Source: a virus (taxonomy: Duplodnaviria; Heunggongvirae; Uroviricota; Caudoviricetes). From it: a stretch of 40,663 nucleotides of DNA. How positions within the stretch are numbered: the first letter of the stretch is position 1; each line of letters starts with the position of its first letter. The notes below the pieces were generated by a model. That model was not told where the DNA came from and did not search any database. It worked only from the letters and a program-made list of their open reading frames with translations. This document shows, one piece after another, positions 8,804 to 39,742 of the stretch. Location: the IMG/VR virus record IMGVR_UViG_2802429245_000006. The stretch is one strand, 5' to 3'. The translations under genes and the position numbers were made by a program.

Positions 8804-8922
8804 GTTTTATTCTATTAACAGCAAAGCAGTCACGCAAGAGAAACAGGAGGGGTATGAGGTGTTTGTGTCATGTTTTCAGTTGGTTAACGCAATGTAATCG
8901 GGTATTTCCCCTGGCAGACTGT

Positions 8923-15874: not shown

Positions 15875-15877
15875 TTT

Positions 15878-16564
15878 ATGAACTCACCTTGGATATTTCC
15901 TGACAACGCAAAGTTCGGTCGAGTCGTGCCTAAGAACAAAATATATGAGCACAGCGCGGCAAGCACTGGGTTGAAGTCACTTTTTGTAGAGCAAGTAGAG
16001 CAAATCCTTTGGGCTTACAAGCTATCGCCTAGCACGCTGAATATTCCTCAAACCAGTGAGGTCAGTGAAATACAGGTTTTCAGTGTGAAGCTTAAAGGTG
16101 ACTCGATAGACGACAGCGTACTAAAAGCCATTGATTTGGCGATACCTTTTCCCATTCTATTTGAGGTATGGGAAGCTCGCGGTGAGCAAGGCCACTACGT
16201 TGCTTGCTATAAGCGTAAGGCAGAAAATGATCAGTCAAAATGGTTTTGTAGCCGCTATTTACGTTCAGAAACCTTCTATTCAAGTGATTCATTAGCAGTG
16301 ACTTCAGAAGTTTTGGGTTTGCCTACCGCTATCGATATGGCGGAGCTGTATCAAAAGCTTCTTACTCGCTTGTTACCCATACCCCAACGAGCCGCTGAGA
16401 GTATAGAAGAGGCTATTCAACGCCTGGAGGCAATTCAGGCATTGGAAAAGCAAATCTCGCAATATAAGAAGAAGGTTCATGCCGAGAAACAGTTTAACCG
16501 CAAGGTTGAGCTCAATAAGCAGTTAAAGAATTTAAGGTGCGAGCTTCAAGAGTTACTCGCATAA
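15878..16564 (+). CDS. Small accessory protein (DUF4391-like, with C-terminal coiled coil)
   Basis: 228-aa ORF starting 3 nt after the helicase stop. Family assignment is from recalled gene neighbourhoods, not a verified match. Confidence 0.55.
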   Translation: MNSPWIFPDNAKFGRVVPKNKIYEHSAASTGLKSLFVEQVEQILWAYKLSPSTLNIPQTSEVSEIQVFSVKLKGDSIDDSVLKAIDLAIPFPILFEVWEARGEQGHYVACYKRKAENDQSKWFCSRYLRSETFYSSDSLAVTSEVLGLPTAIDMAELYQKLLTRLLPIPQRAAESIEEAIQRLEAIQALEKQISQYKKKVHAEKQFNRKVELNKQLKNLRCELQELLA

Positions 16565-16637
16565 AGAATAAACAATTTCAATCAGTTAAATAGTGCCACA
16601 TGCTTTTTATGCAAGGCATCACGCAAAAGGTGAACAC

Positions 16638-18629
16638 ATGGACAAATTAAAGATGCACAGCCCCGACATGACGCAGCAAAACATAGAGAAAATTCAGGCG
16701 TTGTTTCCGAACTGTGTGACGGAATCAAGAGGAGCTAACGGAGAGCTAAAGTTAGTCATTGATTTTGACCAACTTAAACAAGAGCTATCAAATTCAATCG
16801 TTGAAGGCCCGCAAGAGCGCTATCAGCTGAACTGGCCCGGTAAGCGAGAAGCACTACTAACAGCGAATGCACCTATTGCCAAAACCTTAAGACCTTGTCG
16901 AGAAGAAAGTGTCAATTTTGACACCACTAAAAACCTCTTTATTGAAGGCGATAACCTTGATGCATTGAAACTGCTACAAGAGGCATATATTGGAAAAGTC
17001 AAATTAATATATATTGATCCACCTTATAACACCGGTAATGACTTTATATATGAAGACGATTTTTCTGAAAATGCAGAGAGCTTCTTAATAAAGTCCAACC
17101 AGAAAGATAGTGATGGTAATAAATTAGTAGCGAATACAGAAGCTAATGGCAGATTTCACTCGGATTGGCTAAGCATGATGTACTCACGTTTGAAATTGGC
17201 TCGTAATCTACTAAGTGATGAAGGAGCTGTGATTATCTCAATTGATGAGAATGAACACAGCAACATAGTGAAATTAGGTGGTCTTATATTTGGCGATGAA
17301 AACTTTTGTGGCGAAATAGTCTGGAAAAATAGTAGTAAAAATGACCAGAAATATGTCTCAATACAACACGAATACCTTGTTATATTTGTTAAATCAAAGC
17401 AAAACAATAAGGGGGATTGGGTTGAGAAAAAAGAAGGCCTAGACCAAATTTATCAAGCGTTTGATGGTTTTAAACGCAAACATGGCAATGACTGGGATGC
17501 AATACATGCAGATGCGCTTGAATGGTATAGGAGTTTCCCTGCATCCAATCCAATTTCATCAAGTAAACATTATAGCTGGATGGACGAGCGCGGTGTATAT
17601 TTCCCAGATAATATTTCAGGCCCAAACGATGGTCAGTATGTTTATGACGTCATCCATCCTGTGACTAACAAACCATGCAAAATGCCTTCTACAGGATGGC
17701 GCTATCCAGAATCAACGTTAATTGAAAGAATAGCTGATAATCGAGTGCACTTTGGAAAGGATCATAAAACTGTTCCAAACAATAAAACGTATCTAAAAGA
17801 TACTGAATATCAGAGCCTTACGAGCATGCGCTTCGTTGATGGTCGCAGCGCTTCTAAAAGGCTGCAAACCCTTTTCGGTGATAAAGTTTTTACAAACCCT
17901 AAAGATGAAATTTTATTAAAAGATTTATTTAAAGCAATTGGTGTATCAGAAAAAGATATAGTCCTTGATTTCTTTGCAGGTTCTGCATCGACGATACATG
18001 CTGTTTTTGAACTCAATAAAGAAACTGGCAGTAATTGTTCGTGTATCCTAGTGCAGCTTCCAGAAGATCTGAAAGAAATGTTAAAAACGGCTAAAGGTTC
18101 TGCTAAGAAAGTCACGCAGAACGCTATCAATTATTTGAAAAATAAAGGCCTACCACAAACAATTAGTGAAATTGCAAAAGAACGTATTCGACTTTCGGGG
18201 CAAAAGTATACCGAAGATTTCGATATTGGATTCCGAGTTCTCAAAGTAGATACCTCCAACATGGCGGATGTGTACTACTCTCCAGATCAAGTTACTCAGG
18301 GTTCGTTAGACTTATTGGTAGATAATATTAAAGCAGACCGCACTGATGAAGATTTACTTTTCCAGGTTCTACTTGATTGGGGCGTCGATTTAACCTTGCC
18401 AATTAGAAAAGAAACGATTCAAGGTAAATCGGTATTCTTTGTCGATGATGATGCACTGGTGGCCTGTTTTGATCTGCGCATAAATGAAGCTTTGATTAAA
18501 GAGTTAGCCACAAAAGAGCCACTTCGCGTAGTGTTCCGTGATGACGGCTTTGAGTCTGATGCAGTAAAAATCAATGCTGAGCAGATTTTCAAGCAAGTGT
18601 CGCCACATACTGAAGTTAAAGCGATATAA
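16638..18629 (+). CDS. mod: Type III Mod-like N6-adenine DNA methyltransferase (beta class)
   Basis: Catalytic motif [12 protein letters not shown] precedes AdoMet motif [12 protein letters not shown], the order typical of Type III Mod. ATG at 16638 with AAGGTG upstream; the ORF-track frame begins 15 codons earlier. Confidence 0.85.
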
Positions 18630-18638
18630 GGAGGGATC

Positions 18639-18728
18639 ATGACAAATTTTACCGGATTAAAATTTGCACACAGCCTTGTCGCAGACAAGGTGTGCCCGAA
18701 GTGTTGCGTACATGGAGGTGCGCAATGA
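18639..18728 (+). CDS. Possible 29-aa leader peptide (uORF) coupled to res
   Basis: ATG at 18639 is 4 nt after AGGAGG; translation [29 protein letters not shown]; its TGA overlaps the res ATG (ATGA at 18725-18728). Confidence 0.3.
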
Positions 18729-21700
18729 AACTTAAGTTCAAAGTCCAACCTTATCAAACTGTTGCCGTAGAGTCGGTTGTTGACTGCTTTGCGGGGCAAC
18801 CTAACACATCCGGCGTTACCTACCGAATCGACCCTGGCGTTGCCAAGGATAAGTTTGGCAATGCTGGTTGGGATATGAGCGACCAAGACGGTTTTAAAAA
18901 TGCAGAACTCGCGATCACTGAATCGCAGTTATTGCAAAATATTCATGGTGTTCAAAGTAGACAGAACCTCCCTGTTTCAGAAGCGTTAGTCAGCAATGCT
19001 AGCGCTAAGATTAATCTCGATGTTGAAATGGAAACCGGTACTGGTAAGACATATTGCTACATCAAAACCATCTTTGAGATGAATAAGCGCTATGGCTGGA
19101 GCAAATTTATTATCGTTGTGCCTAGCATCGCCATTCGTGAAGGTGTTTACAAGTCGCTGCAAATCACAGGTGAGCATTTTGCTCAGAATTACGACGGTAA
19201 AAAGGCCCGGTTCTTTATCTATAACTCGAAACAATTGCACCAGTTAGAGAGTTTTTCTTCTGACAGTGGCATCAATGTGATGGTCATTAATATTCAAGCC
19301 TTTAATGCTTCAGGAAAAGACAATAGACGTATTTATGAAGAGTTGGATGACTTTCAGTCTAGGCGTCCTATTGATGTTATTAGTGCAAACCGTCCAATCC
19401 TGATTTTGGATGAGCCACAAAAGATGGAAGGCAAGAAGACATTAGATGCCTTAGCCAAATTCAAACCACTGATGGTACTTCGATATTCGGCCACGCATAA
19501 GACAACACATAATAAAGTGCATCGCCTGGATGCGCTTGACGCTTATAACAATAAGCTGGTTAAGAAAATTGCCGTTCGTGGTATTTCAGTAAAAGGCTTG
19601 GCGGGAACGACAGCCTATCTATATTTGGAATCCATCGAGATCTCGAAAAAAATGCCAGTGGCTCGCATTGAGATCGAAGTTAAACAACAAAATGGTATTA
19701 AACGCATACCCAAGAAGGTTACTAAGGGCGATAATCTTTTTGATCTTAGCAATGGTCTGGACCAGTACCGTGACTTTGTGGTTACTGATGTCAACGCGAT
19801 TAACGACACGGTTGAATTCAAAAATGGCCATGTTTTAACCACGGGCGATGCGACGGGAGACGTGACCGAAGAGACCATTCGCCGAATACAGATCCGCGAG
19901 ACAATTAAAGCGCACCTTGAAAAAGAAAAAACACTTTTTAACCAGGGTATAAAGGTTCTCTCTCTCTTTTTTATTGACGAAGTCGCAAAGTATAGGGACT
20001 ACTCTCAAGCCGATGAAAAAGGTGATTATGCTCGCGTTTTTGAAGAAGAGTACTCCTTGCTTGTACAGGAATATCTTGATGAGTTGACTCTTTTACCGAG
20101 TGAGCAGACTGATGCCTATAAAGCCTATCTATCGGCCATTGAAGGCTCCAGAACGCATAATGGTTACTTCTCAATTGATAAGAAATCAAATCGTCTTCAG
20201 AACCCCGGCTTTAAAGTCCGTGGTGAAGATGCCGGGCTATCAGACGATGTAGATGCTTATGATTTGATTCTAAAAGATAAGGAAAAGTTACTTTCGTTTG
20301 AAGAGCCTACTCGGTTTATCTTTTCACATTCGGCCTTGCGCGAGGGGTGGGATAATCCAAACGTATTTGTCATGTGTATGTTAAAACACAGCGACAACAC
20401 TATCTCTCGTCGTCAAGAAGTTGGGCGTGGTTTACGTCTGGCCGTCAATAAACATGGTGACAGACAAGACCATCCGGCAACTGTGCATGAAATTAATGTT
20501 TTGTCGGTGATTGCAAGTGAAAGCTATAAAGACTTTGTCACGAATCTGCAAAAAGAGATCAGCGAGTCTCTCTCAGCGAGACCTAGAAAAGCAGATGAAG
20601 CTTATTTTACGGGTAAGACAATTACAACAGCTGATGGACCTGTAGAAGTAACACCTGTCATGGCTAAGCAAATTTATAAGTATTTGCTTAAAAATGATTA
20701 TACCAATGACGTTGACGATTCAATTGCGCCATCATTCCACCAGGCTAAGGCTAGTGGACAGTTAGCGCCAATGCCTGCTGAGTTAGAGCCTTACCGCGAG
20801 CAAATATTGACCCTGATTGACGGTGTTTATAGTGAAGCGCAATTGCCAGGTGTTGGTGATGATCGTAAACCTAAAAACAATCCGTTGAATGCTAATTTTG
20901 ATAAGAAAGAGTTTCAGGAGCTTTGGCACAAAATCAATCGCAAAGCGGTTTATAAGGTTGATTTTGATTCGTCTGAGTTGATTAAAAATTGTATTCGGGT
21001 ACTCAATAAAGAGCTTAAGGTAACGCCTCTTCAGTACACGATTCAAGATGGTGTTCAATTGGATGGCATTACCGACGAACAACTCAAAGCTGGACAAAGT
21101 TTCAAGGTGAAAAACACTGAGACTGAAACTCATCAATCGAGCATTCATTCTGCTGTTCGTTATGACTTGGTTGGTAAGTTGGCTGAAAATTGTGTGCTGA
21201 CTCGCAAAACAGTCGCCGAAATACTGATGGGTATAGAACCTGTAGTATTTGCACAATTTAAGCAGAACCCTGAGCATTTTCTCGCTGAGGCTTCACGCCT
21301 TGTGAAAGAGCAAAAGGCATCTGTGATCATCGAGAAGCTATCATATGATCCAACGAACGAATCTTATGATGTTGATATATTCACGGCAGAGCAAAAAATC
21401 ACTGATATGACAAAAGCCGTTAGTGGCGTTAATAAGCATATTTATGATTATGTTGTCGTTGATTCACAAGGCATTGAACGGGACTTTGTTACCGAGCTTG
21501 ATACAAGCAAAGAAGTCGTGGTTTATGCAAAACTGCCTCGTGGTTTTCTGATACCGACGCCTGTTGGCGACTACAACCCTGATTGGGCGATTTCTTTCAA
21601 AGAAGGAAGTGTTAAACACATTTACTTTATTGCAGAGACTAAAGGAACGATGTCTTCGCTTGAATTGCGTGGCATAGAAGATCGCAAGATTGAATGTGCT

Positions 21701-21802
21701 AGGAAATTCTTTGAAAAAATTAATGCAGAGATAACGAGTGAAAACGTCAAATATGATGTTGTAACGAGTTACTCGAAATTAATGGAAGTCATAAGCGGTT
21801 AG
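18725..21802 (+). CDS. res: Type III Res-like restriction subunit (helicase plus C-terminal PD-(D/E)xK nuclease)
   Basis: Walker [11 protein letters not shown], motif [13 protein letters not shown]-like RYSATHK, motif [12 protein letters not shown]-terminal ...NPDW...FIAETKG nuclease-like motif. ATG at 18725 with GGAGG upstream. Confidence 0.85.
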
Positions 21803-22400: not shown

Positions 22401-23213
22401 GTGATGACAATGTGTCGGGTACTGGATGTCGCCCGGGCCGGGTTCTACGCGTGGCTGCATAACCCGGTCTCGGCACGTGATAAAGATAATCAGCGTCTGC
22501 TGACGCTTATCCGTGACTCCTATTCACTGAGCGGAGGCGTATACGGTTACCGGCGGGTTCATGGCGACCTGAACGAAATCGGGGAAACCTGCGGTAAAAA
22601 CCGGGTGGGCCGTATTATGCAACTGAACCGGATTAAAGCCGTGCGCGGCTATAAAGCGCCGCGTCGTATCGCTGGCAGACCTTCAGTGGTTGCCCCTAAT
22701 CGCGTGCAGCGGCAGTTTACTGTTGTCCGGGCCAATCAGGTCTGGGTCACCGACATTACTTATTTCCGCACCTGGCAGGGCTGGCTGTATCTGGCGGTGG
22801 TTATCGATCTCTTCGCCCGTAACGTGGTGGGCTGGTCGATGAAGCCCACTCTCTCACGCGAACTGGCGTTGGATGCACTGATGATGGCGGTCTGGCGACG
22901 TAAACCCGACGGCGAGGTCATCGTGCACTCAGACCAGGGAAGCCAGTACGGCAGTGACGACTGGCAGCGCTTCTGCCGGGCTAATAACCTGGTCCCGAGC
23001 ATGAGCCGGCGTGGCAACTGCTGGGATAATGCGGTGGCCGAATCGTTCTTCAGTTCACTGAAAAAAGAGCGCATCAGGAAGAGAATATACAAAACCCGGG
23101 ATCTAGCCCGGGCGGATATCTTCGATTACATTGAAGTGTTCTACAACCGGGCCCGGCGCCACAGTCACCTCGGCGGCGTCAGTCCGGAGGCCTTTGAACA
23201 GGCCTCGTCGTGA
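22401..23213 (+). CDS. IS3-family transposase OrfB (DDE integrase core), expressed by -1 frameshift from orfA
   Basis: The frame is open from about 22320; DDE-region motifs ...WVTDITYF...HSDQGSQY...CWDNAVAESFF... The annotated start is a GTG. Confidence 0.8.
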   Translation: MMTMCRVLDVARAGFYAWLHNPVSARDKDNQRLLTLIRDSYSLSGGVYGYRRVHGDLNEIGETCGKNRVGRIMQLNRIKAVRGYKAPRRIAGRPSVVAPNRVQRQFTVVRANQVWVTDITYFRTWQGWLYLAVVIDLFARNVVGWSMKPTLSRELALDALMMAVWRRKPDGEVIVHSDQGSQYGSDDWQRFCRANNLVPSMSRRGNCWDNAVAESFFSSLKKERIRKRIYKTRDLARADIFDYIEVFYNRARRHSHLGGVSPEAFEQASS

Positions 23214-23971: not shown

Positions 23972-24535
23972 TCAGTTATGTCGTGGTCGGCCCCGGTTAC
24001 TTTTTTCGGGAAGCCTGCTACGGCCCAGAATAATACCGTGTTCTTTCTGATCCTGTTTAGCCAGGTAGCTGAGGGCGTAACGTAAGTCGTCTACCGCAGA
24101 CTTATCACTATAGTGAATCACGTGATCGATACACACAGGGTATTTGTCTTTAGCCCGGCAAAGGTGAAAATAACCATCCCCTTCCGTGATCCGCCTCCAG
24201 ATATCTCCCAGTTGCCTGGATATCTGATAAGAGTTCTTGTGACGTTGTCCATCCAGGTAGCCGATAAAATGAATATGAAGCCCTTTGTTTGGTGTATATT
24301 CCATAACCCAGTAATATCCCACCAACATCGTCTGGGTTTCGCTAAGTAAGCGGTATATTTCCATACACATACTGTGCTTACAGGAATGCCCGAAACTGGG
24401 CGTGTCTTTCCTGTAGGCAAAATCAATTCTGAAAGGTAACAGTTTAGAAAAACGTTGAAACAACCCCTCCATGTGTTCATTCACATCTTTCAGAATCGCG
24501 AAATTCATTTCGTAATTGGGATTGGCATTATACAT
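23972..24535 (-). CDS. yfjJ: YfjJ/YagK-family protein (inovirus Gp2-like)
   Basis: 187-aa ORF with ATG at 24535 and AAGGAC upstream; sequence and position next to a yfjI-like gene match the CP4-57 layout. Confidence 0.7.
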   Translation of the reverse strand: MYNANPNYEMNFAILKDVNEHMEGLFQRFSKLLPFRIDFAYRKDTPSFGHSCKHSMCMEIYRLLSETQTMLVGYYWVMEYTPNKGLHIHFIGYLDGQRHKNSYQISRQLGDIWRRITEGDGYFHLCRAKDKYPVCIDHVIHYSDKSAVDDLRYALSYLAKQDQKEHGIILGRSRLPEKSNRGRPRHN

Positions 24536-25411: not shown

Positions 25412-26845
25412 TCAGAGGTCAAAGTTAGGTGCGACATACCACGTTTTTCCCTCAATAACCGGTACAACTCTGTTTTGTTCATACAGTAAATCCAGTAACC
25501 AATTGATTTTATCCTTTTTCCGGAAACGGTTCGGACCACGCTGTAAAATGTCATTTTTTTTCATACAGGGGATCCCCTTCTCAATGCAATAGCTTTTTAT
25601 CCAGTTAAAAAGTTCAAGCTCCTCTGGAATGAGTCGCACAGGTACGGTCAGGGCAGAGTTTTCAAACGTTAACGGACTGGATAACCGAACATACTCATTA
25701 CCATACCATATTGCTAATTCTCTCGCCATTTCAGCAGTGTAGGGGGAAATGTCACCTTCCTCACCGCTAAAATGGTGAATAAGTCCTGCCAGTCTTGCCA
25801 TATACTCTGCATTTTTAGCAGCATATTCTCTGAAGTCTCTTAAAGGCCCCAGAACCGACATCTTCGATTCCACATCGTTGTAATAGTCCGTCCAGATTCT
25901 GGCTGCCTGAGGAGAAAAGTGAAGGCAACGCCGCTCTCCCCTCATCGCCAGGCTTTCATCAATGAGTTCATTTATCCTCTGTTCAAACAAATCCTGATAC
26001 TGTGATGAATAATTATCTCCGGTTATTATCCTTGTCCCCTGCGTTGATGTTGGTTGACACATCAAAAACCTTGCATGATGTCCCGACGTTTTCACAAGTT
26101 CTTTTTTTCGTGTACAAAAACCTTTGTGGTAAACATCAGGCTGAACCATCACCGATATCGTCAGTCTTGGTTCCTTCAAAAAAATTCCGGGAGATGATTT
26201 CCTGTCGATGAAAAGAGAACCACCATCCCACAAAGAGTTAAGTATTCCCAGTTTACTCATTGCCCGGCTGTCAAAAATTATCCCACCTTCACTGGATACA
26301 AGAGCAAAAGAGCGATTGCTATCAGAATAATATTTTAACATTCCCTCTATCGTTGTATCATTAAAAATTGTTCGATGTATCTGTGGTGGAACAGGACACT
26401 TATTCAGATGTGTTTTAAGCTCTGATTCTGTTGTCTTATAATCTTTACCGGCACGAATCTCTTTATGAAGTTTTGACTCCAGTGCTTTTTGTTTTTGCTC
26501 CCATATTTCCTTTTCTGTACTGTAATTCTCAACCAGTTTCGCGTATTCTTCCGCCAGGGCTTCATCCCTGAGATAAAATGCTTTCATAAACACTTTATCC
26601 ACGGTCGTTTTCCTTTCACCAGAATCAGCCAGAATCATAGAGTAAATATTAGAGGACCCACGTAAATTTCCTGGCCTGCACACATCAACCTGATTCTGAC
26701 AGGCAATTGACATCGCTGTTAATGCTGCAGTTATCGCCATAGCTATAGGTGTCTGTGTATTCTTTTGAGTTTCAATTATTGCATTTCTCGCCAGCGGTGG
26801 CATTGCATATATCGGACAAGGATTTTCTGGTGCAAGTAAGCACAT
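25412..26845 (-). CDS. yfjI: YfjI-like protein (DUF3987 family)
   Basis: Long ORF; ATG at 26845 with GAGG upstream is preferred over the ORF-track start at 26863. Position between alpA and yfjJ matches CP4-57. Confidence 0.7.
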   Translation of the reverse strand: MCLLAPENPCPIYAMPPLARNAIIETQKNTQTPIAMAITAALTAMSIACQNQVDVCRPGNLRGSSNIYSMILADSGERKTTVDKVFMKAFYLRDEALAEEYAKLVENYSTEKEIWEQKQKALESKLHKEIRAGKDYKTTESELKTHLNKCPVPPQIHRTIFNDTTIEGMLKYYSDSNRSFALVSSEGGIIFDSRAMSKLGILNSLWDGGSLFIDRKSSPGIFLKEPRLTISVMVQPDVYHKGFCTRKKELVKTSGHHARFLMCQPTSTQGTRIITGDNYSSQYQDLFEQRINELIDESLAMRGERRCLHFSPQAARIWTDYYNDVESKMSVLGPLRDFREYAAKNAEYMARLAGLIHHFSGEEGDISPYTAEMARELAIWYGNEYVRLSSPLTFENSALTVPVRLIPEELELFNWIKSYCIEKGIPCMKKNDILQRGPNRFRKKDKINWLLDLLYEQNRVVPVIEGKTWYVAPNFDL

Positions 26846-27420
26846 AAATGCCTCTCTTTTCATTAATGGGTTAGTAAAGTAGCAGCAACTCCCGCTATAA
26901 TAGCGAAAATAGCTGCTGTTCAGACCTAATGTTCTGAAAAATACAGAATATCTGTAGATCTGATGTTTAATAACCGATAAGGTTAATTCAGTTCAGACTG
27001 TGTTATTTACCACGAAATATCATTCATGTTTCTCATTCTTAACACCTCCTAAAATTATTTCACTAACACCTTCCCCCCGGTCTTTTTCCTTTCTCAGGAA
27101 TCAGCCAGAACCATAGTGTAAATATTAACGGGCCCACGTAAATTTCCGGAGCTGCACACGTCAATCTGATTCTGACAGGCAATTGACATCGCTGTTAATA
27201 ATGATGTTGTAGTCATAGCCAGAGATGCTTTTTCATTTTGTTGAGTTTCAATTATTGCATTTCCAGTCATTGATGGTTGCGCATATACTGGATACGGAGT
27301 ATCCGGTTTGATGTAAGACATAAATATTCCCTTTTTTCGTAATGACTTTCGGTTATAGCAGCTATTTCCGCTACAATAGCAACAATAGCTGCTATACAGA
27401 CTGGATATACTGAAAATACA
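26603..27420. repeat. Tandem imperfect direct duplication (~350 bp, roughly 75-80% identical) of the yfjI promoter-proximal and 5' coding region
   Basis: 26603-26940 aligns with 27076-27420 by eye (for example gacaggcaattgacatcgctgttaat and gagtttcaattattgcattt occur in both). Confidence 0.75.
27094..27321 (-). pseudogene. Truncated duplicate of the yfjI 5' end
   Basis: 75-aa ORF MSYIKPDTPYPVYAQPSMTGNAIIETQQNEKASLAMTTTSLLTAMSIACQNQIDVC... parallels the N-terminus of the full gene and ends inside the duplicated block. Confidence 0.6.
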
Positions 27421-27426
27421 AACAGT

Positions 27427-27654
27427 TCATCTGGTCTGTATCCAGCAGAGAAGGTCACTTAACAACCATCCGCAAGATTTCTTTCCGATAGACTTACGTG
27501 GTGGAAATTTTCCCTCCCGTTCAAGTTTCCACGCTTGCGTACGAGAAACTGACGTGATCTCATATCGTTCCTTTTCACGTACCAGTCTGTCGCATTCAAT
27601 CCCATAAGCTTTCAAAATGACCAGACGCTGTTCATCTGTTAATGGAAGCCACAT
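27427..27654 (-). CDS. alpA: AlpA-family phage transcriptional regulator (HTH)
   Basis: ATG at 27652-27654 with AGGAGGG upstream; ...ERYEITSVSRTQAWKLEREGKFPPRKSIGKKSCGWLLSDLLCWIQ resembles AlpA-type HTH proteins. Confidence 0.75.
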   Translation of the reverse strand: MWLPLTDEQRLVILKAYGIECDRLVREKERYEITSVSRTQAWKLEREGKFPPRKSIGKKSCGWLLSDLLCWIQTR

Positions 27655-28346
27655 ACTACCCTCCTGATATATCAATACTTTTTATTTCCGGCATGAGCAT
27701 GAAATGACTAAGTTTCCCGGATAAACAATGAGTGAAAGTCACTGTCATTCATCCAGCCAACACCTTGCAAATAAAATGTAATACTATGATTTTTATAGGT
27801 CAAAATACTGAATTACAATGTTAAAATGGCTTTTAATAGAAAAAATAAAGACATATAGAGCCAAATAAAAATAAACTACGACAAATAAAAACAAAAGATT
27901 AATATTAAAAATCCATTATGACGATTTTTATTGACTAAAATCAGGTTGGGATATATAAATAAATCCATGTAAAATTCAAACAAGGCATGGAGGAGTCGCA
28001 GGAAGGTGAAATATTTCCATCTAATTTGTGATAATCATCACAAAAATAAGCTACAACAAGCGGAGGAAAAGACAATCTGTTGCTGAACAGACAGAAGCAG
28101 GCTACGAATGATCGGAAAATGAAGCAAATACGCTTATACAGAAGACGCAGGGGTAACTGACGGAGACAATCACAATCAGGAGAAAATGATCGTAAATAAT
28201 GTATAAAATCTCAGGATATAAACAAATGTACACAAGCTATCCACGTAATCTGCGGCTGGCTCAGGATTAACGTTTCATTTCAGTGGACGACATCGATTCT
28301 GTCTGACAGTGGGCCAATATGTGGCAAGCAGAAAACTTCTGACATC

Positions 28347-29978
28347 ATGGTAACTCGGACAATGCAACAAAAGTATGATCGTGTTTTATCTGGCGAATCC
28401 CATCCATTCCCTGGCATATACGAGGCGGTTTCCGAACAACTCCTTTTGCTCATCTTTAAGGCTCGTCAGCTATATCAGAATCCAGAATATCGCCCCTGGT
28501 TTGAAGAACAGCACAGAGTTCTCTCTGCATTACGTGCTAATACAGAGCTCTTGAGAATATTTAGAGAACAAAGAAACGCGGAAGAACCAGAGCTTATTAT
28601 TAAAGAATCTACATTACCCCTACTCACTAATTCTAATCTTACAGATGCGCTTAATATTATGTGCCATTTATACAATGGTTTTGATGAAGGAAATATCAGT
28701 CTGAAAACCTGGGGGGCGATGCAAGAGGTACAGACAACATCAACCTTTATCAGCCCGGGACCGAGAACCTGGAAAACACCTGAACTGGCAAAGTTTGTAG
28801 GAGATGATTTATTTAATATTCTGACTGAATGTAAAGCCTGGAGTTCACCAATTCCAGCAGAAACCCGACAGGGCTATTGCCATCAGGATCTGTCTGTTGC
28901 ACACTCCTGCACCTCAGAGTTACTGGCACACCTGAATCAATACCATGAAATTGATGAATCAGCAATACTTGCCAGAGTTATTGGTATGACGGTTAACGGA
29001 TTCTACAAGAAAAATAATACAGACCTCCCAGAATGGCTATCCCCCTTTAAAGAGGAACATAAAATATTCAGAGATTGTCTGGAGCAAAAGACCGAGGATG
29101 TAATCAGACTGAAAGAACAACTGTTGAAAACAGGACGTTCAGAATTCGTGAATAATTTGTGTCGGGTCGCCAACTGGTATGAAATTAAGTCAATATACGA
29201 TGAATATGTCCGTCTTTATGCCAATGAAATCATTGGTTGGTTCAACAAAACCATGGAATATTTTAAACCAACAGATTTTATCCGATATACATGGAAATTC
29301 GCAACAGTTACTCCAGGTAAAGAGACAGAAACCAAGCATACAACTGCATGGGAAAAGGATTATTGCCAGATAACTATACAACGTGATGAACTTCTGAGAT
29401 TGATTCACACGAATACCCTTCAGGATGCAGTAATTTATCTTTGCCATTGTCTGCAGAAGAAATACAAGAAATCATCCCAAAATGAGATAGAGTTTCCAGG
29501 AATAAAACCTCCGGCATCAGAGAGTGAAATTAATATAACAGATAGTTTTGAATTTTATTCTCTCCTGGAGCTCAGTAAAGATAATGAGAGACGGCTGGAA
29601 ACATTTCAAAAATGGTATGAAAAAAATAAAGTTTTGTTAGAAAGTCATAAACAAAAACGAACAGAGAAGATTGACGTTGCCGTACGACTTGTAGGGCTGA
29701 AAGCCTATGATCTGCATGAAGGGATTCCGGATAGTCCAAAACGAAAAGTTAAAGATGGCATAAATGAAGACATCAAAGCCGATACCAGTTTACGCCTGCC
29801 AAAGACAAATATAAGTGATACGTCGCTAAACCGTTATCGCCGCACTGTTAAGGAGATTATCAATAACGAAATCGACGCATTCCTGTTGGAACAGAAGAAA
29901 AAAAATAAAAGATTTCCCTACAGTGAAGATAGAGATGTGATTCGACCTTTATGGGGAAAATGCCTGACCGGGCAGTAG
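28347..29978 (+). CDS. Hypothetical protein, 543 aa, low GC, function unknown
   Basis: Long clean ORF in AT-rich DNA, divergent from alpA; no motifs recognised. A second possible ATG lies at 28362. Confidence 0.6.
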   Translation: MVTRTMQQKYDRVLSGESHPFPGIYEAVSEQLLLLIFKARQLYQNPEYRPWFEEQHRVLSALRANTELLRIFREQRNAEEPELIIKESTLPLLTNSNLTDALNIMCHLYNGFDEGNISLKTWGAMQEVQTTSTFISPGPRTWKTPELAKFVGDDLFNILTECKAWSSPIPAETRQGYCHQDLSVAHSCTSELLAHLNQYHEIDESAILARVIGMTVNGFYKKNNTDLPEWLSPFKEEHKIFRDCLEQKTEDVIRLKEQLLKTGRSEFVNNLCRVANWYEIKSIYDEYVRLYANEIIGWFNKTMEYFKPTDFIRYTWKFATVTPGKETETKHTTAWEKDYCQITIQRDELLRLIHTNTLQDAVIYLCHCLQKKYKKSSQNEIEFPGIKPPASESEINITDSFEFYSLLELSKDNERRLETFQKWYEKNKVLLESHKQKRTEKIDVAVRLVGLKAYDLHEGIPDSPKRKVKDGINEDIKADTSLRLPKTNISDTSLNRYRRTVKEIINNEIDAFLLEQKKKNKRFPYSEDRDVIRPLWGKCLTGQ

Positions 29979-30790: not shown

Positions 30791-32107
30791 TCACCTTCTA
30801 CCAAACAGATTAACAACATTATTACCTGTCTGCTGTTGGTGGTTATTAACCCGGTCCTCCCAGATCTCAAGTGCTCTGCGTTTTTCTGGCAAATAATCGT
30901 ATCGATCATAATGTTTTGAACTGACATCGTTCAACGCATGATTTTGAATACGATCGCGGATTTCCTTACTGATTCCAGCTTCTCCCATTAACGTTTTACA
31001 GGTCCGACGTAAGTCACGTGCTGTAAAAATTTTAAAGTCAGGATTACAAGCCCGGAAATACATGATAGCGCGAGCCAGACTGTCCGTACGAACCGGACGC
31101 TTACCATTAGTCGAAAGCGGGAAAATGTAAGGGCTCGATTTTTCTTTTGTTAACTCCTGCACACAAGATAATTCCTGTAATGCTGATTCAGTCAACGGTA
31201 TCAAATGTTCTCGCTTATTTTTAGAGACATCCGCAGTCACCAGCAGCGTTTTTTGCTGAAAATCAACATCACACCACTGACTGGCGATCATTTCGAAGGG
31301 ACGTTGCCCCCCGGTATAGATACAGAATCGGATCAAATGTTGCATCAATAATCCAACGTTGGTTGCTTCAGCAAAATGTTCCATTAGAAAACGCAACTCT
31401 TCGAGTGTCAGCCAGGTGTCACCGACTTTTTCAGCAGATGACTGTTTCGGTATCACTGATACCGGATTGGCCTCCAGCCCAAAAGTAATCCCTACACTTG
31501 TGTTCATCGGATCGTTATCAGCTTTCAGACCATAGTTAAATGCAGCCATCAGGTAAGAACGGATCCGGTTAGAGTGAACCACTGCACCGCGCTGAATGAT
31601 CCCGGCCAGGATATGTTTAATCTGTCCGGAAGTCACATCTTTAGCTTTAGTCTCACGGGGGATCACTGTATAGCATTCATTTTCAAGGCGTTTCAGAACA
31701 TCCTGCCATGTTCTCTTATTATCAATTTTCATTTTGTTAACATAACCATGAATCAATGCTTCAAATGAGCCCTGTGATTGATGGAGTTGTATCCGCTGCT
31801 GTTCTGCAAGCTGTTGTCGCTCCAGTTCTGTCTGGGGATCCTTTCCTTCAATGAGCCAGGCACCATACTTTTTTGCCAGTTCATTCGCTGTAGCCAGTTT
31901 CATCTCAGGCCATATACCCAATTGAATGAATCTTTCTTTTTTCCCTTTTTCCACGTAATAGCGGAAATAGAAAATTTTGCTGCCAGAAGACTGAACTTTG
32001 ATGCCAAGTCGTCCAGTGCCACGTTGAGAACTGTTGCTCCAGACATAGAACGATGTCTTTTTTGCTTTCAATGCTCGGATAGCTGTTTCAGTTAGATTGA
32101 CGGCCAT
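30791..32107 (-). CDS. int: Tyrosine-type site-specific integrase (P4/CP4-like)
   Basis: 438 aa; C-terminal catalytic region with ...HALNDVSSKHYDRYDY... and ...RDLRRTCKTLM... typical of tyrosine recombinases; ATG at 32105-32107. Confidence 0.9.
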   Translation of the reverse strand: MAVNLTETAIRALKAKKTSFYVWSNSSQRGTGRLGIKVQSSGSKIFYFRYYVEKGKKERFIQLGIWPEMKLATANELAKKYGAWLIEGKDPQTELERQQLAEQQRIQLHQSQGSFEALIHGYVNKMKIDNKRTWQDVLKRLENECYTVIPRETKAKDVTSGQIKHILAGIIQRGAVVHSNRIRSYLMAAFNYGLKADNDPMNTSVGITFGLEANPVSVIPKQSSAEKVGDTWLTLEELRFLMEHFAEATNVGLLMQHLIRFCIYTGGQRPFEMIASQWCDVDFQQKTLLVTADVSKNKREHLIPLTESALQELSCVQELTKEKSSPYIFPLSTNGKRPVRTDSLARAIMYFRACNPDFKIFTARDLRRTCKTLMGEAGISKEIRDRIQNHALNDVSSKHYDRYDYLPEKRRALEIWEDRVNNHQQQTGNNVVNLFGRR

Positions 32108-32906: not shown

Positions 32907-33449
32907 TTACTTGTCTTTATCCGGCTGAAACTTATCAGGCACATTTCCGGTAGTTTCCATCAGATAATCGGACAGCATTCGCGGGATGTTTTCATCAAGT
33001 TTTGTGCATGCGTTACAGGCTCTGACAACTTCTTTTTTCAGGCCATCCAGCATGACGGGGGTCATCTGTGGGAAGCTCCTTTGCATAGTAAGCGGCAGGC
33101 TGTCCATGATTGATGAAATCTGACTCGCCAGTTTTGAAAGCGCGTACATGCAAAACTCTGTATCAATCACGTCACCGCGATCGCGCTCGTTTTTAAGTTC
33201 CTGCGCCTCCGCCTGTGCTGTCAGTAATCTGATCCTGACTCGTAAGAGTTCATCATCATCAATCTCGCCTTTGTCGTTTGTAAGCTGGCTAATTGCATTG
33301 TTAACCCTATTGTCTATCACGCTGGCAACATCATAAAACGCCTCACGGCCTTTACGTTCAACGGGAGTCACTCCCCACTTGTCGAATGCTGTAGCACTTA
33401 CCCGGCAGCTTTGCGCCATGGTTTTTTTGTTCATCAGGTGCGATTTCAT
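32907..33449 (-). CDS. Terminase small subunit, lambda Nu1-like
   Basis: ...LTAQAEAQELKNERDRGDVIDTEFCMYALSKLASQISSIMDSLPLTMQRSFPQM... parallels lambda Nu1 as recalled. Start uncertain: ATG at 33449 or 33434. Confidence 0.75.
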   Translation of the reverse strand: MKSHLMNKKTMAQSCRVSATAFDKWGVTPVERKGREAFYDVASVIDNRVNNAISQLTNDKGEIDDDELLRVRIRLLTAQAEAQELKNERDRGDVIDTEFCMYALSKLASQISSIMDSLPLTMQRSFPQMTPVMLDGLKKEVVRACNACTKLDENIPRMLSDYLMETTGNVPDKFQPDKDK

Positions 33450-33650
33450 CAATATCCCAACTTGGTCAAGGTTTCAGGTTGGTGTGTTGGTGTTATCTTT
33501 CCCTTTTTATTCATGGAGATAGAGCAAACAACAAAACCACCACCACCACCCTGAAAAAGCTCATAAATAGCGAAAAACCGCGAGGTCGCCGCCCCGTAGC
33601 CTACCGGATCGCCGGAAAGGACCCGCCAGCCAGAACGGGCCCTAATTTCA

Positions 33651-34034
33651 TCAACCAATCAACTTATAGCGACCATCCCGTGCATTGCGGCGTACACGCT
33701 CAATCTTGAGGCATAGCGCCGCATCTGGCTTTTTTGGGACAGGTACGCGGCAATATTCAGAAGCTCGAGGAATATTGTTTATCCAGTCGATCACTTCGCT
33801 TAAATACCAGGCCTTACGCCCTTCCGTAACCTGTACGCGTTCGGGGAACTCTCCGCGAGCCTCAAGGTTTAGCAATGTGCGACGGCTAAGGGTAGTAAGT
33901 TCCATCACCTGATTCATATCAACAAGGCGTTCACTTAAACGCATTTTGTCAGCAATAGCCTTTAATTCCTCTACTGCTGGATCCGGATACATCATTTCGG
34001 CAATTGGCTTAAGGTCATTGTAATGATTCTGCAT
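33651..34034 (-). CDS. HTH DNA-binding protein (AlpA/excisionase-like HTH with N-terminal extension), 127 aa
   Basis: ATG at 34034 with AGGGGGAT upstream; contains ...LTTLSRRTLLNLEARGEFPERVQV... HTH-like segment. Confidence 0.5.
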   Translation of the reverse strand: MQNHYNDLKPIAEMMYPDPAVEELKAIADKMRLSERLVDMNQVMELTTLSRRTLLNLEARGEFPERVQVTEGRKAWYLSEVIDWINNIPRASEYCRVPVPKKPDAALCLKIERVRRNARDGRYKLIG

Positions 34035-34045
34035 TGTATCCCCCT

Positions 34046-34387
34046 TTACACACGAGCCAGCGGCTGAACAGAAATACCTGAGCCAACAAACGCGGCAACC
34101 TTTGCCGACAGTTCTTTTACAGACTCAGGCCAGTTCAGAGCATCAACATTTAAAACACCTGTCTTATAAACCTGTGCCTGTGTTTTTTTCGCTGTGTCGA
34201 TTTGTACAGCGGAAACATAAACCGCTTTGCCTGCGCTCGTTCCATCCCATACCACTAGCGCACCAGTTGCATCTTCCTGCATCAGTGGCGTAAACGCAGG
34301 TATTACCCCTTTATTGGCTGAAAATATCCCCAGCGTAGTAACCAGTGCTTCAGTGCCAGACATGAGTTCAGTGTAATGAGTAGCCAT
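34046..34387 (-). CDS. Head decoration protein, lambda gpD-like
   Basis: 113 aa; ...PLMQEDATGALVVWDGTSAGKAV... parallels the gpD pattern PLMLD...LVAWDGT; strong RBS AAGGGGGAG. Confidence 0.65.
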   Translation of the reverse strand: MATHYTELMSGTEALVTTLGIFSANKGVIPAFTPLMQEDATGALVVWDGTSAGKAVYVSAVQIDTAKKTQAQVYKTGVLNVDALNWPESVKELSAKVAAFVGSGISVQPLARV

Positions 34388-34396
34388 TGCTCCCCC

Positions 34397-35443
34397 TTAG
34401 CCAATGCGAACGGTAACAAAACGATTGATGCGGGCCGGTATTGGCTGTGGTGCTGAATGTGTCTGCACATATTCAATAGCCGGATCACCAGGCACAATAT
34501 AGTTTTTCGGTGCAAGTTCGGCTTTAGTCAGCCCCATCCGAATTAGCTCCGGATCCTGAATACCGCCATAAGCGACAATCCCCTGAAGAGCCGTATTGCC
34601 AAGCACCATCAAATCAGGATCAAGGAAATATTTTTCAGTTCCGTCCTCGTCGGTATAACGCCCGCTGTAAACAACAATCGCAACATCGCCCATATACCCT
34701 TTAAAACTCACCGAATCACCAAGGTCTTTAAGGGCCGTTTCCAGTTCGGAATTAGAACCACGACGGGTATCCAGAGCCTCTTTTATCGCTCTGAATGAAC
34801 GGTATTTCTTCCATACATTACCGCCCATAATGATGATATTAGTGACGCCCTCACTAAATTCTGCGTAGCTCTCAATATCATCATTTGGATCAAAAGTTTC
34901 TTTATCCTTACCTGACCACTCAGCACCGCCAGACTGCGTGATAATATTTTGTGGTTTTATATTCCAGTCCAGTTCATAACGTTCAATACCATCGCCCTCA
35001 ATGATATTTTTCCCCGTTGTGATTGCCTGAACAGCAAGCCATTCAATACGTGCACGTATAGCTTTAGCCTGATTTACAATCGCCTGTTTAACTTTAATAT
35101 TACGCGCCCCAAAAGCATTGTATTGTTCAGGTGATACACCAGCAGGGCGCACAGCTAACTTATTTGGATCAATGCTGCTTTTCGGTTTCATATAGCCAGG
35201 GCGAATTGTTTTTGATTCGTATCCCTCATCTCGTGAAACTTTACTGCCCACCATAGGAGAGCAAAACGCCGCGATCGGGATATTTGGATCGTCGATCGTA
35301 TCAAGAATAATGTCTCTCGATTCAAACATTACCGAGCGAGTGAAAAACAAACTGGTAAACAACGCATTTAATTTTTTTTGCACATCTTCAGCATTAGCCA
35401 CCTGCACAAGCTGTGTAGGCGAATATAAATCAACCATACTCAT
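34397..35443 (-). CDS. Major capsid protein, lambda gpE-like
   Basis: From the ATG at 35443 (AAGAGG upstream): MSMVDLYSPTQLV... and a long block ...NIITQSGGAEWSGKDKETFDPNDDIESYA...DTRRGSNSELETALKDLGDSVSFKGYMGDVAIVVYSG... closely parallels lambda E. Confidence 0.85.
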   Translation of the reverse strand: MSMVDLYSPTQLVQVANAEDVQKKLNALFTSLFFTRSVMFESRDIILDTIDDPNIPIAAFCSPMVGSKVSRDEGYESKTIRPGYMKPKSSIDPNKLAVRPAGVSPEQYNAFGARNIKVKQAIVNQAKAIRARIEWLAVQAITTGKNIIEGDGIERYELDWNIKPQNIITQSGGAEWSGKDKETFDPNDDIESYAEFSEGVTNIIIMGGNVWKKYRSFRAIKEALDTRRGSNSELETALKDLGDSVSFKGYMGDVAIVVYSGRYTDEDGTEKYFLDPDLMVLGNTALQGIVAYGGIQDPELIRMGLTKAELAPKNYIVPGDPAIEYVQTHSAPQPIPARINRFVTVRIG

Positions 35444-35721
35444 CCTCTTTACATTCATTACAAATAATTGTGAATATATTCTATTACCGATGTCTGCTAT
35501 GCGAATACATGCAACCAAGTGCAATGTTGTATAAAATATGCCGTGACAACTTCAGTGCTGATAATTCGTGTTAATGTATTTACTTCCTTTGGTCGGGATT
35601 TATGTAGCATGCCGGAAAATCTATTTTTTTCCGGCATCTTTTTGTTTGCAGAATTTAAAACGGTATATTATCGCCGTACGGATCATCATTCCCCGACTGT
35701 TGTTTTGCCCTGTTCAGTGCG

Positions 35722-36078
35722 TCAGTGGCCTGCCCCTGCTGGCCTTTTTTTGCCGCCCGGTCGCGCCGTTCGCGCACTGATTACGCTGTCTGCGATAACC
35801 TGCCAGCCCTGCCGCGTTTCGCCGTTCTGGCCTGTCCACTGGCTTACCTGCATGTTACCCGCCACGCTCACCAGTTCGCCTTTGTGGTGTTTTGCCAGTG
35901 CGTCGGCCTGTCTGCCAAACGCCAGGACGGATAACCACATCGTCGCCGTTCCGTCATCTGCCTGGCTGCACGGAAGGGGGACCGCCATACTAGCCATCGC
36001 CATTTGTGTACCCTTGCTGGTGGTCTTTAACTGCGGGTCAGCCACCAGCCGTCCGTAAGCCGCTATCTGTGCTGTCAT
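35722..36078 (-). CDS. SSB-like OB-fold protein (118 aa)
   Basis: ...YGRLVADPQLKTTSKGTQMA...VSQWTGQNGETRQGWQVIADSV... resembles single-stranded DNA-binding proteins; start overlaps the upstream stop (ATGA). Confidence 0.5.
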   Translation of the reverse strand: MTAQIAAYGRLVADPQLKTTSKGTQMAMASMAVPLPCSQADDGTATMWLSVLAFGRQADALAKHHKGELVSVAGNMQVSQWTGQNGETRQGWQVIADSVISARTARPGGKKRPAGAGH

Positions 36079-36317
36079 GCTGTCTGCTCTCCGGTTTTAA
36101 CGTTGATGGTTGTTACCTGTTCCGCTTCGGCAATCTCCCGTTCTGTCATCGTGGCAAAGTTTGCAGCTGCCGTTGTCATGAATGCGCTAATCAGTTCGGG
36201 ATGTGCTTTCGCATATCCTTCCCCGGCGTTGCGGTCGATGATTTTTATCGCCACTCTCAGCCAGTGCTCTGTAAGGTCAATAGCGCGGTAGTGTGGTTGT
36301 TTGCGGTTTGCCTTCAT
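36075..36317 (-). CDS. Hypothetical protein (80 aa)
   Basis: ORF between the iteron array and the SSB-like gene; stop overlaps the SSB-like start. Confidence 0.4.
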   Translation of the reverse strand: MKANRKQPHYRAIDLTEHWLRVAIKIIDRNAGEGYAKAHPELISAFMTTAAANFATMTEREIAEAEQVTTINVKTGEQTA

Positions 36318-36356
36318 AGTTCAGATCTCAATTTTTCGTATATATATACAAAACAG

Positions 36357-36680
36357 TGCGGGTTATGCGGGTTAGCGGGTTAGCGGGTTATCTTCGCTTG
36401 CTAAGTATTTTTTATTCATTAATATCAATACATTACAAAATTAACTGTTTACTGTTTAGCCGTGGCGTAACCCGCAAAATGCTCAAAATAACCCGCAAAC
36501 GGGGTTTTTTCTGCGGGTTACGCGTGGCTGTTTGCTGTCACTTCCTGTTATTCATCTGCGGGTTATAATCGCACTTTTGTGGGTTATAACTGCCGTTTTG
36601 CGGGTTACGTGCGGGTTATTGATTTCCTTTTTATTCATGCAGTTAATGCACTTATACACAGAGTAACCCACATAACCCGC
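36357..36680. repeat. Iteron array: at least 13 copies of GCGGGTTA / TAACCCGC in both orientations (putative replication origin)
   Basis: Four tandem copies at 36357-36392 and dispersed copies at 36468, 36488, 36513, 36558, 36579, 36600, 36611, 36664 and 36673; adjacent AT-rich tatatata tract at 36340-36350; immediately downstream of the primase-helicase-like gene. Confidence 0.75.
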
Positions 36681-36703
36681 AACTTTTCACCTCACACAGG
36701 GGG

Positions 36704-38827: not shown

Positions 38828-39123
38828 TTCTGCTCTCTCCACGCGGCAATCATGTTTTTCAGTTCCTGTAGTTTTTTATCCACATTCACACGTGACACAT
38901 GGTTATTTCTGGAAAGCGGGATTTCCCGCCTGAATCTGCTAATAAAGATCTCCACGTTCAGCGAACTATGAAATGAATAGCCATCACGAATAAAATACAC
39001 ACGGTCAAACATTATCGATTTTACTGTTACTCTGTTGCCGTTCTTATCCCGATAAATAGCGCCGGGGATAATTTTGGGATGTGCATAACCGCTGGCAGTC
39101 AAGCCAGATAAATACGTTCTCAT
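38824..39123 (-). CDS. Hypothetical protein (99 aa)
   Basis: ATG at 39123; stop overlaps the primase start (ATGA). Confidence 0.45.
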   Translation of the reverse strand: MRTYLSGLTASGYAHPKIIPGAIYRDKNGNRVTVKSIMFDRVYFIRDGYSFHSSLNVEIFISRFRREIPLSRNNHVSRVNVDKKLQELKNMIAAWREQK

Positions 39124-39129
39124 GATTAT

Positions 39130-39450
39130 TTATCCCCGATTTGAATCAGTATTCGCTTTCTTTATGGCATTTAATGCATCTGTGGCATTTTCAATGGTGC
39201 ACCGTAACGAAATATCAAAATGTCCAAGCATTGCCAGTAACAAACCGATATTACCCATATCAATGCGCATGGCCTTTTCGTCATAGTCCTCATTTTCTGA
39301 CGCATGCCACATCAGGCTACCAATTGACGCAACGGCCATTGATATATTGTCAGTCGCCCCATCCGCAGCGGAATAAACCTTTTTAGCAATATCATGCTCA
39401 CAGTTAAAATGCGGATTAATCAGGTACTGGTAATTTGACATATCAGGCAT
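39130..39450 (-). CDS. Hypothetical protein (106 aa)
   Basis: ORF in the same co-directional gene string; no family recognised. Confidence 0.45.
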   Translation of the reverse strand: MPDMSNYQYLINPHFNCEHDIAKKVYSAADGATDNISMAVASIGSLMWHASENEDYDEKAMRIDMGNIGLLLAMLGHFDISLRCTIENATDALNAIKKANTDSNRG

Positions 39451-39646: not shown

Positions 39647-39742
39647 AGCTACCTCGATACTCTCGTTATCGTTGGTGGTTAGAAGCCCTGCGAGTGGTAA
39701 CGACACTTGCGGGGCTTTGTTTTTTGTTGCACTTACTGTTAA

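Follow-up and report, generated by a model that had tools for sequence, protein, structure and literature searches.

Two palindromes at the junction between an alpA-family gene and yfjI, in a CP4-57-like integrative genomic island of Escherichia coli, are members of a previously undescribed and deeply conserved palindrome family of the AlpA-YfjI module. They were examined in a window comprising the whole 40,663-nucleotide stretch of IMG/VR virus record IMGVR_UViG_2802429245_000006, assigned to the Caudoviricetes, in which both genes lie on the minus strand. The region that carries them is, with high confidence, an ancient partial tandem duplication of which the distal copy has decayed to a pseudogene, combined with the conserved palindrome element. 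The duplication itself is ordinary, being old, common, pseudogene-generating and already flagged by annotation pipelines. For the palindrome we tentatively favour an origin-type role, as a site within the island's replication module that is able to form a hairpin, a reading that we hold to be possible and that is weighed below against its rivals.

The palindromes and their family

Dyad A, the proximal palindrome, occupies positions 26880–26917 and reads AGCAGCTATTTTCGCTA-TTA-TAGCGGGAGTTGCTGCT on the minus strand, and dyad B, the distal one, occupies 27354–27396 and reads AGCAGCTATTGTTGCTA-TTG-TAGCGGAAATAGCTGCT on the same strand. Both were recovered by an inverted-repeat search, by folding and with a covariance model of the family (51.8 bits for dyad A and 55.7 bits, E = 6e-17, for dyad B), in agreement with a preliminary description of the sequence which had noted an AGCAGC...GCTGCT dyad in each of two repeated blocks. 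The core pattern GCTATTNNNGCNATTNTAGCGG is absent from the rest of the 40.6-kb window, its two occurrences comparing with 0.10 expected, and the single-stranded leaders fold better than shuffled sequences, at -31.2 kcal/mol (z = -3.85) and -38.4 kcal/mol (z = -5.72). The folded minus strand, which is the mRNA-sense strand, contains three G·T wobble pairs in dyad A and two in dyad B and no A·C pair.

The family to which they belong consists of the arms GCTA-N5-GCTA and TAGC-N5'-TAGC separated by a loop of 2–4 nt, with boxes that are nearly invariant and N5 spacers that are paired and variable. Members were sought by scanning metagenomes, viral contigs and a set of genomes with one per species for the pattern, and members selected in this way are biased by the pattern itself. 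The core was found in Escherichia, Citrobacter, Enterobacter, Serratia, Dickeya, Erwinia, Rahnella and several Pseudomonas, as well as in metagenome-assembled genomes of the Thiotrichales and Burkholderiaceae. E. coli K-12 carries the same core, GCTATTTCCGCCATTAATAGCGGAATAGC, despite a YfjI that is 43% identical to that of the window and an AlpA that is barely alignable, and from E. coli to Pseudomonas, Thiotrichales and Burkholderiaceae the core is kept at YfjI identities of only 31–43%. The non-enteric loci carry perfect palindromes of up to 46 bp, the flanks of which differ from locus to locus yet remain complementary (GCAAGGCT/AGCCTTGC, CCGCCCCCT/AGGGGGCGG, AAACCT/AGGTTT and AAGCAC/GTGCTT).

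Pairing of the arms is itself conserved. An alignment of 36 sequences showed both sides changed in 10 of 22 pairs, and the covariation score of the outer stem was 0.249, compared with 0.142 ± 0.012 for shuffled alignments, none of which reached it in 500 trials, and with at most 0.155 when the pairing was slid. In the inner stem, N5 varies in a compensatory manner between TTTCC/GGAAA and the forms seen at loci that had been reached through the protein and not through the pattern: TCCCC/GGGGA together with CTCCT/AGGAG in Pseudomonas (locus L180), TACCT/AGGTA in Dechloromonas (L181) and TTTTT/AAAAA (L206). It is these changes that define the family in the general form given above.

The position of the element relative to genes is less uniform than its sequence. 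All 39 elements whose locus has a yfjI match lie within about 1.5 kb of that gene, 28 of them within 200 nt upstream, eight further upstream and three downstream. In the Enterobacterales the element is located between alpA and yfjI, whichever of two AlpA types, themselves barely alignable, and whichever of three YfjI types is present, and the same arrangement recurs in plasmid-borne islands. In Pseudomonas it occurs 200–900 bp upstream of yfjI and ahead of alpA, in a divergent intergenic region, and in Serratia fonticola, Budvicia and contig L146 it follows the yfjI stop codon by 13–150 nt; at locus L065 it lies 1.2 kb downstream. Some features of the element recall iterons. The four GCTA/TAGC boxes are phased at 9 bp, and extra boxes are found outside the paired part in L037 and L065. 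In two gut metagenome contigs (L083:555-583 and L089:3973-4001) the copy-B dyad carries one or two extra tandem 9-nt units, GCTATTGTC, which break the symmetry of the palindrome. Moreover, Pseudomonas sp. PvP027 carries two different family members 408 bp apart (L180:629-660 and 1036-1069) in a single intergenic region upstream of alpA-yfjI, a natural two-site arrangement that is unrelated to the E. coli duplication described below.

A generalised form of the pattern yielded mostly chance matches on viral contigs, the only true members being L206 and L260, and a scan of genome contigs with a single YfjI protein provided no confirmed relative. The core is without a match in 50,697 phage records, and a candidate role as mimic of a cos- or pac-like site of a helper phage was discarded on that result. 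No Rfam family corresponds to the palindrome, and no description of it was found in the literature searched. Within the window, the sole Rfam match at gathering level is to an RNA of IS102 located elsewhere, and at the dyads nothing beyond hairpin look-alikes was obtained, all of them below threshold (22.8 bits or less, where the gathering thresholds are 35–130).

Additional features surround the dyads. Dyad B ends about 70 nt past the alpA stop codon, and directly 5' of it, across that stop codon, lies an imperfect inverted repeat designated hp1 (27394–27441, minus strand), with 19-nt arms that are 79% complementary and form part of the minimum-free-energy fold; it shows one compensatory change relative to strain 08_3449, AUACAGAC/GUCUGUAU against AUUCAGAC/GUCUGAAU. 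The sequence AACTGTTTGTATTTTCAGTA at 27408–27427, directly past the alpA stop, has an AT-rich centre and agrees with the LexA-box frame CTG-N10-CAG, and this spacing is not kept in lineage MLI106K4 or in copy A of the duplication, such that the fit may be due to chance. One reading frame is open across the dyad in all variants, as expected if the region coded for a small hydrophobic peptide (AAIVAIVAEIAAI…). We give this explanation almost no credence: there is neither a conserved start codon nor a conserved Shine-Dalgarno sequence, which led to its rejection, in-frame stops occur directly upstream in copy A and in K-12, and the peptide is not conserved past the dyad. The frame is open because the palindrome itself is rich in GCT and ATT.

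The duplicated alpA–yfjI junction

A repeat search resolved two direct-repeat blocks with a common start-to-start offset of 476 bp, 26574–26868 against 27050–27344 (295 nt, 75% identity) and 26880–26940 against 27356–27416 (61 nt, 79%). Gapped local alignment merges them into a single pair, 26574–26945 against 27050–27420, that is about 77% identical and has a score of 297, far above the 21.5 ± 2.3 obtained for shuffled sequences (maximum 31, n = 200). The preliminary description, which had estimated by eye two blocks of roughly 350 bp in direct orientation with 75–80% identity and had proposed their alignment as a check, is upheld on both counts, the similarity being highly significant. Copy A, the proximal block (26574–26945, minus strand, defined by repeat search and alignment), comprises the leader, dyad A and a Shine-Dalgarno sequence, followed by about 90 codons from the start of the intact yfjI. 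Copy B, the distal block (27050–27420), is located between alpA and copy A. A truncated open reading frame (ORF) had been attributed earlier to the upstream copy; the truncation stands, and the orientation needs correction, since the genes lie on the minus strand and the transcriptionally upstream copy is thus the one with the higher coordinates.

Nor was the earlier term, a tandem duplication of the promoter and 5' end of yfjI, appropriate in full. The region contains a head-to-tail copy of the yfjI leader and about 90 codons. However, it is not a clean tandem, the copies being separated by a spacer of 104 nt, and duplication of a promoter is unsupported because no promoter was predicted between alpA and either start codon. 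A sigma-70 scan gave eight sites, against 7.1 expected, with none in that interval, and no intrinsic terminator was predicted there either.

Copy B contains a yfjI' pseudogene fragment (27050–27321, minus strand), delineated from the ORF list, the alignment, the annotation pipeline PGAP and Pfam. It includes an ORF of 75 codons at 27094–27321, as described earlier, which has its own ATG and ends with TGA, and in-frame yfjI similarity continues for about 14 more codons to position 27050. For the identical sequence in strain 14EC033, PGAP flags the fragment as a pseudogene ('DUF3987 domain-containing protein, incomplete, missing C-terminus'), and it covers only positions 2–45 of the DUF3987 Pfam profile. 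Across lineages the distal ORF has a length of 38, 49, 65 or 75 codons, with indels of 10 and 12 nt, and the 24 protein database matches to it are all short (52–94 aa). The variable length, the indels, the in-frame stop and the exclusively short database matches together imply that copy B is a pseudogene undergoing decay.

A 33-nt stretch, TTAACAGCGATGTCAATTGCCTGTCAGAATCAG, is identical at 27166–27198 and 26690–26722, in contrast to the overall identity of about 75% between the two copies. It is also identical in three of four other aligned lineages and carries two substitutions in MLI106K4. It encodes the most conserved N-terminal motif of YfjI, LTAMSIACQNQ, and its retention in the pseudogene as well suggests gene conversion or a role at the DNA level. 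The only promoter-like matches common to both repeat copies are located in this stretch and are weak (9 of 12).

The spacer (26946–27049, 104 nt), defined by alignment and genome matches, has no counterpart in the repeat unit or in alpA, such that the whole period is not duplicated sequence. When it was tested as a degraded 3' end of alpA, no significant alignment was obtained to any of four alpA types, nor to the repeat unit. It is nearly invariant in five lineages, and in 1007 records it is 90–95% identical where copy B is only ~83% identical. On the minus strand it carries GGAGG (27045–27049), a strong Shine-Dalgarno sequence, followed after eight nucleotides by an ATG and an 8-codon mini-ORF, MRNMNDISW (27007–27036). 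Five diverged lineages retain this mini-ORF intact; it varies by one synonymous change and by a stop codon altered from TAA to TGA.

The duplicated form is widespread in E. coli. Among 5426 complete genomes, a copy-B query was matched in 1401, nearly always at two places, and the spacer, which is present only in the duplicated form, was found in 1338; Nissle 1917, UTI89 and O157:H7 all carry the duplicated form. B copies are 83–99% identical among lineages and A copies, taken together with single-copy forms, 87–99%, compared with 73–81% between A and B. Comparison with single-copy strains, suggested earlier, is feasible, because such forms exist. Those of the present lineage are rare (strains 08_3449 and 12690, and contig L139) and fall inside the A clade, and the more distantly related CP4-57 of K-12 is also single-copy. 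The nesting of the single-copy forms within the A clade is best explained by one old duplication followed by occasional loss through recombination between the repeats.

The same data bear on an alternative origin, in which copy B and the spacer constitute a recombination scar, the remnant of a different yfjI allele left after insertion of a new yfjI cassette. Such an origin would account for the 19–27% divergence of A and B and their separate clades, for the spacer without homologue in the repeat unit, and for the visible shuffling of modules at this junction, where both AlpA types are combined with both YfjI types. We nevertheless consider it improbable, given that neither the 5426 E. coli genomes nor the 24 matches in the protein database yielded a full-length gene whose 5' end is of B type, and that the two blocks are colinear with a single constant offset. 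It concerns only the origin of the repeat and is compatible with any function of the dyads.

Possible functions of the palindrome

Selection for pairing of the arms indicates that it acts at least partly as a folded strand or cruciform, and the near-invariant boxes, the extra unpaired boxes and the expansion of the 9-nt unit point to sequence-specific recognition by a protein. That it stays beside the module irrespective of where it lies with respect to transcription is most simply explained by an origin-type site, and an array of short boxes next to a helicase gene is indeed what was found. Thus, the palindrome may be a cis-acting DNA site of the island's replication module, with short boxes arranged head to head and able to extrude or fold as a hairpin. 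YfjI would be loaded there as an MCM-like AAA+ helicase, possibly together with the neighbouring YfjJ/G2P-like or MobA-like protein, and the duplication would incidentally have given the island of the window two such sites, spaced 476 bp apart.

YfjI is assigned to the PHROG category 'DNA helicase', and an MCM-like AAA+ helicase fold is predicted for it on the basis of its AlphaFold model (predicted local distance difference test score, 87.3), for which nearly all of the top Foldseek matches were MCM replicative helicases, including MCM2-7 and archaeal MCM subunits. A sequence search of the PDB yielded no significant match. Longer YfjI homologues are fused to Toprim or Prim-Pol primase domains, and the neighbouring gene encodes a G2P/YfjJ-like protein or, in Stenotrophomonas, a MobA/MobL protein. 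In the Burkholderiaceae locus L037 a MobA-like ORF (49% identical) adjoins the palindrome, and no yfjI was found in the sequence available.

Several observations weigh against an origin-type site. Foldseek TM-scores for YfjI were low (0.38 or less). Among six DUF3987 loci chosen without bias, four had no palindrome upstream of yfjI; in two of these the covariance model places one just downstream and in the other two it finds none. The identity of YfjI does not track the palindrome, since the YfjI of locus L060 is 53% identical over its full length to that of K-12 and is accompanied by an unrelated palindrome, whereas a Pseudomonas YfjI at 32% identity is accompanied by the same core, and this mismatch is the main weakness of any model invoking a cognate protein. 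Furthermore, overexpression of AlpA leads to excision of CP4-57 from K-12, and cured colonies are readily isolated (PMC10107115), which gives no sign of stable autonomous replication. Finally, alpA and yfjI are probably co-transcribed in the Enterobacterales, with the element inside the transcript, and the mismatches of the window dyads are all G·U-compatible on the mRNA-sense strand, which fits a role in RNA.

That last point underlies a close rival. Within the alpA-yfjI transcript the dyad might constitute a stable stem-loop lacking a U-tract that marks the 3' end of the alpA mRNA, just upstream of a zone of Rho-dependent termination, an explanation that we regard as somewhat unlikely. On this reading yfjI would be expressed only once something overcame termination, perhaps AlpA in the antiterminator role that it has in Pseudomonas aeruginosa, and the duplication would place two gates in series. 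At all enterobacterial loci the dyad lies 20–60 nt past the alpA stop and 45–55 nt ahead of the yfjI start with no promoter detected between, and dyad B is a stable stem-loop without U-tract directly past a gene. In L060 this position is taken by another hairpin of comparable size, and a hairpin also lies 7 nt ahead of alpA in Stenotrophomonas (L063). The yfjI gene of K-12 is, in general terms, among the prophage genes with the strongest upstream Rho-dependent terminators (PMC9160355), Rho-dependent 3' ends fall just past stable stem-loops without U-tracts with rut sites immediately downstream (PMC6061677), and a modest excess of C over G, of +3 to +8 percentage points, follows each dyad. Moreover, AlpA of P. 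aeruginosa is a processive antiterminator (PMC7969949), and AlpA of phage-inducible chromosomal islands (PICIs) activates downstream genes (PMC6092414). However, termination leaves unexplained the near-invariance of the GCTA boxes in hosts from E. coli to Pseudomonas, the presence of boxes beyond the paired part and the sites ahead of alpA in divergent intergenic regions. Mismatches are G·T-compatible on the sense strand in the families of the window and of K-12, but on the antisense strand in L073, L183, L033 and L112. There is no terminator call at either dyad, where the sequence continues into the tails ACUUUACUAACC and AUAACCGAAAGU instead of a U-tract, and an intrinsic, Rho-independent terminator was itself rejected on these grounds, nothing above chance having emerged from the terminator scan. 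No entry for yfjI or alpA was found in the supplementary text of a Term-seq study (PMC7815308), and a study of NAD caps lists yfjI RNA without a 5' coordinate.

The preliminary description had instead proposed the dyad as a regulator-binding site, possibly for AlpA. As a double-stranded operator for AlpA or another island regulator it would control a yfjI promoter, and its palindromic form, its proximity to alpA at most loci and the ability of AlpA-family proteins to bind DNA and activate island genes (PMC6092414, PMC7969949) make this an attractive lead. It is nevertheless very unlikely, because AlpA type and dyad sequence are uncoupled, and they dissociate in both directions. The AlpA of the window matches that of K-12 only at the C-terminus (31% over 29 aa), yet both flank the same core, and the AlpA of L060 is 66% identical to that of K-12, yet flanks the unrelated palindrome. 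The latter, in an Enterobacter kobei-type island (L060:1424-1459), has a 16-bp stem, TATCAGTCGTGATGCC-GTTT-GGCATCACAACTGATA, and occupies the alpA-yfjI position. The AlpA-binding element (ABE) of P. aeruginosa, GGGACG-N5-GGTA, lies in the interval that separates the -35 from the -10 sequence of a promoter (PMC7969949); it had no match within two mismatches in 26500–28400, window-wide counts were at chance level, and no promoter was called at the dyads. Furthermore, a protein site would not need compensatory changes in N5 and flanks, the element is also found past yfjI without an adjacent alpA, and 36–46 bp is long for an operator. The analysis thereby removes what was probably a wrong lead.

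Returning to the origin-type reading, a broader version can be formulated, albeit speculatively. Replication of AlpA-controlled islands and satellites might start at these palindromes, as part of a widespread and uncharacterised module that consists of the MCM-like AAA+ helicase YfjI/DUF3987, a small G2P-like or MobA-like protein and the hairpin-forming GCTA-box palindrome, and that extends from the Enterobacterales to Pseudomonas and the Betaproteobacteria. The duplicated junction, present in about a quarter of E. coli genomes, would then provide a pair of start sites, in loose analogy to ori and crr of phage P4.

The island and its relation to known systems

The genes of the module are all on the minus strand and follow, in order of transcription, as integrase, two unknown ORFs, alpA-family gene, 75-codon ORF, yfjI and a gene of the YfjJ or 'inovirus Gp2' type. 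The tyrosine integrase of the island (30791–32107) was identified by PGAP and Pfam. The alpA-family gene (27427–27654; 75 aa, PF05930) was taken from the ORF list, matches Pfam Phage_AlpA with E = 4e-13 and is annotated by PGAP in the identical sequence of strain 14EC033 as 'helix-turn-helix transcriptional regulator'. The intact yfjI (25412–26845) encodes 477 aa from the PGAP start and is a DUF3987 protein (Pfam E = 5e-85) predicted to be an AAA+ helicase. Its downstream partner, the gene of the YfjJ/'inovirus-type Gp2' family (23972–24535; ORF list and PGAP), has weak Pfam matches to REP_ORF2-G2P and YagK_YfjJ_C that fall under the gathering cut-off.

Elsewhere in the window, the island cargo at 12539–21802 resembles a restriction/defence cluster, with an SNF2-family helicase (1111 aa), DUF4391, an N6/N4 DNA methylase and a protein combining a ResIII helicase with an endonuclease domain (1036 aa). 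An AIDA/Ag43-type autotransporter gene occurs at 5701–8625, and the IS102 RNA match (Rfam RF00124, 69.8 bits) lies at its 5' end, at 8569–8805. Two transposase (rve) ORFs, with regions noted at 10702–11865 and 22401–23213 in addition to 5701–8805, indicate that the island is riddled with insertion sequence elements. Past the integrase, at 32907–40447, there is a second satellite- or phage-like element with a gene for a major capsid protein E (34397–35524) and a DUF927 primase/helicase-type gene (36704–38842).

In many Proteobacteria the alpA-yfjI module of islands resembling CP4-57 or PICIs is thus marked by a palindrome conserved in both sequence and structure, by which such modules could easily be located in sequence data. 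The cargo of these islands includes defence systems and adhesins, they are mobilised through AlpA, and knowledge of an origin or of a read-through gate would render their induction and replication directly testable.

Among the closest known systems is the cryptic prophage CP4-57 of E. coli K-12 (intA-yfjH-alpA-yfjI-yfjJ), which shares the alpA-yfjI-yfjJ order and the palindrome core between alpA and yfjI. It differs in having a single junction copy with a gap of 128 bp, in addition to the divergent AlpA and YfjI described above, and in its dyad the outer AGCAGC/GCTGCT stem is missing and one base is bulged. The Gram-negative PICIs (int-alpA-pri/rep-ori) likewise carry an integrase and an AlpA activator, with a replication gene following alpA directly (PMC6092414, PMC11773190), and in the window's island int, alpA and the replication gene also share one orientation. 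DUF3987 serves as a primase/helicase marker for satellites (PMC10803314). Unlike the PICIs, the candidate site here is a hairpin-forming palindrome that is usually located 5' of the helicase gene.

For a Rho-dependent role, the relevant comparisons are with the protective stem-loops described by Dar & Sorek 2018 (PMC6061677) and with AlpA antitermination in P. aeruginosa (PMC7969949), which share with the present locus a stem-loop without U-tract directly past a gene and an AlpA-family gene just upstream. However, the former stem-loops have no conserved sequence, unlike the dyads, and the P. aeruginosa system relies on an ABE inside the promoter and an intrinsic terminator, neither of which was found here.

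Palindromic origins are a feature of AAA+/SF3 (superfamily 3) initiator helicases, including site II of simian virus 40, the papillomavirus E1 binding site and oriS of herpes simplex virus, in which short head-to-head recognition boxes are arranged in a palindrome beside the helicase gene and the helicase family assembles as double hexamers. The element described here may be analogous, with its head-to-head boxes beside a helicase gene whose predicted product resembles MCM. It differs in the 9-bp spacing of its boxes and in the selection acting on arm pairing, which is more typical of hairpin or cruciform origins.

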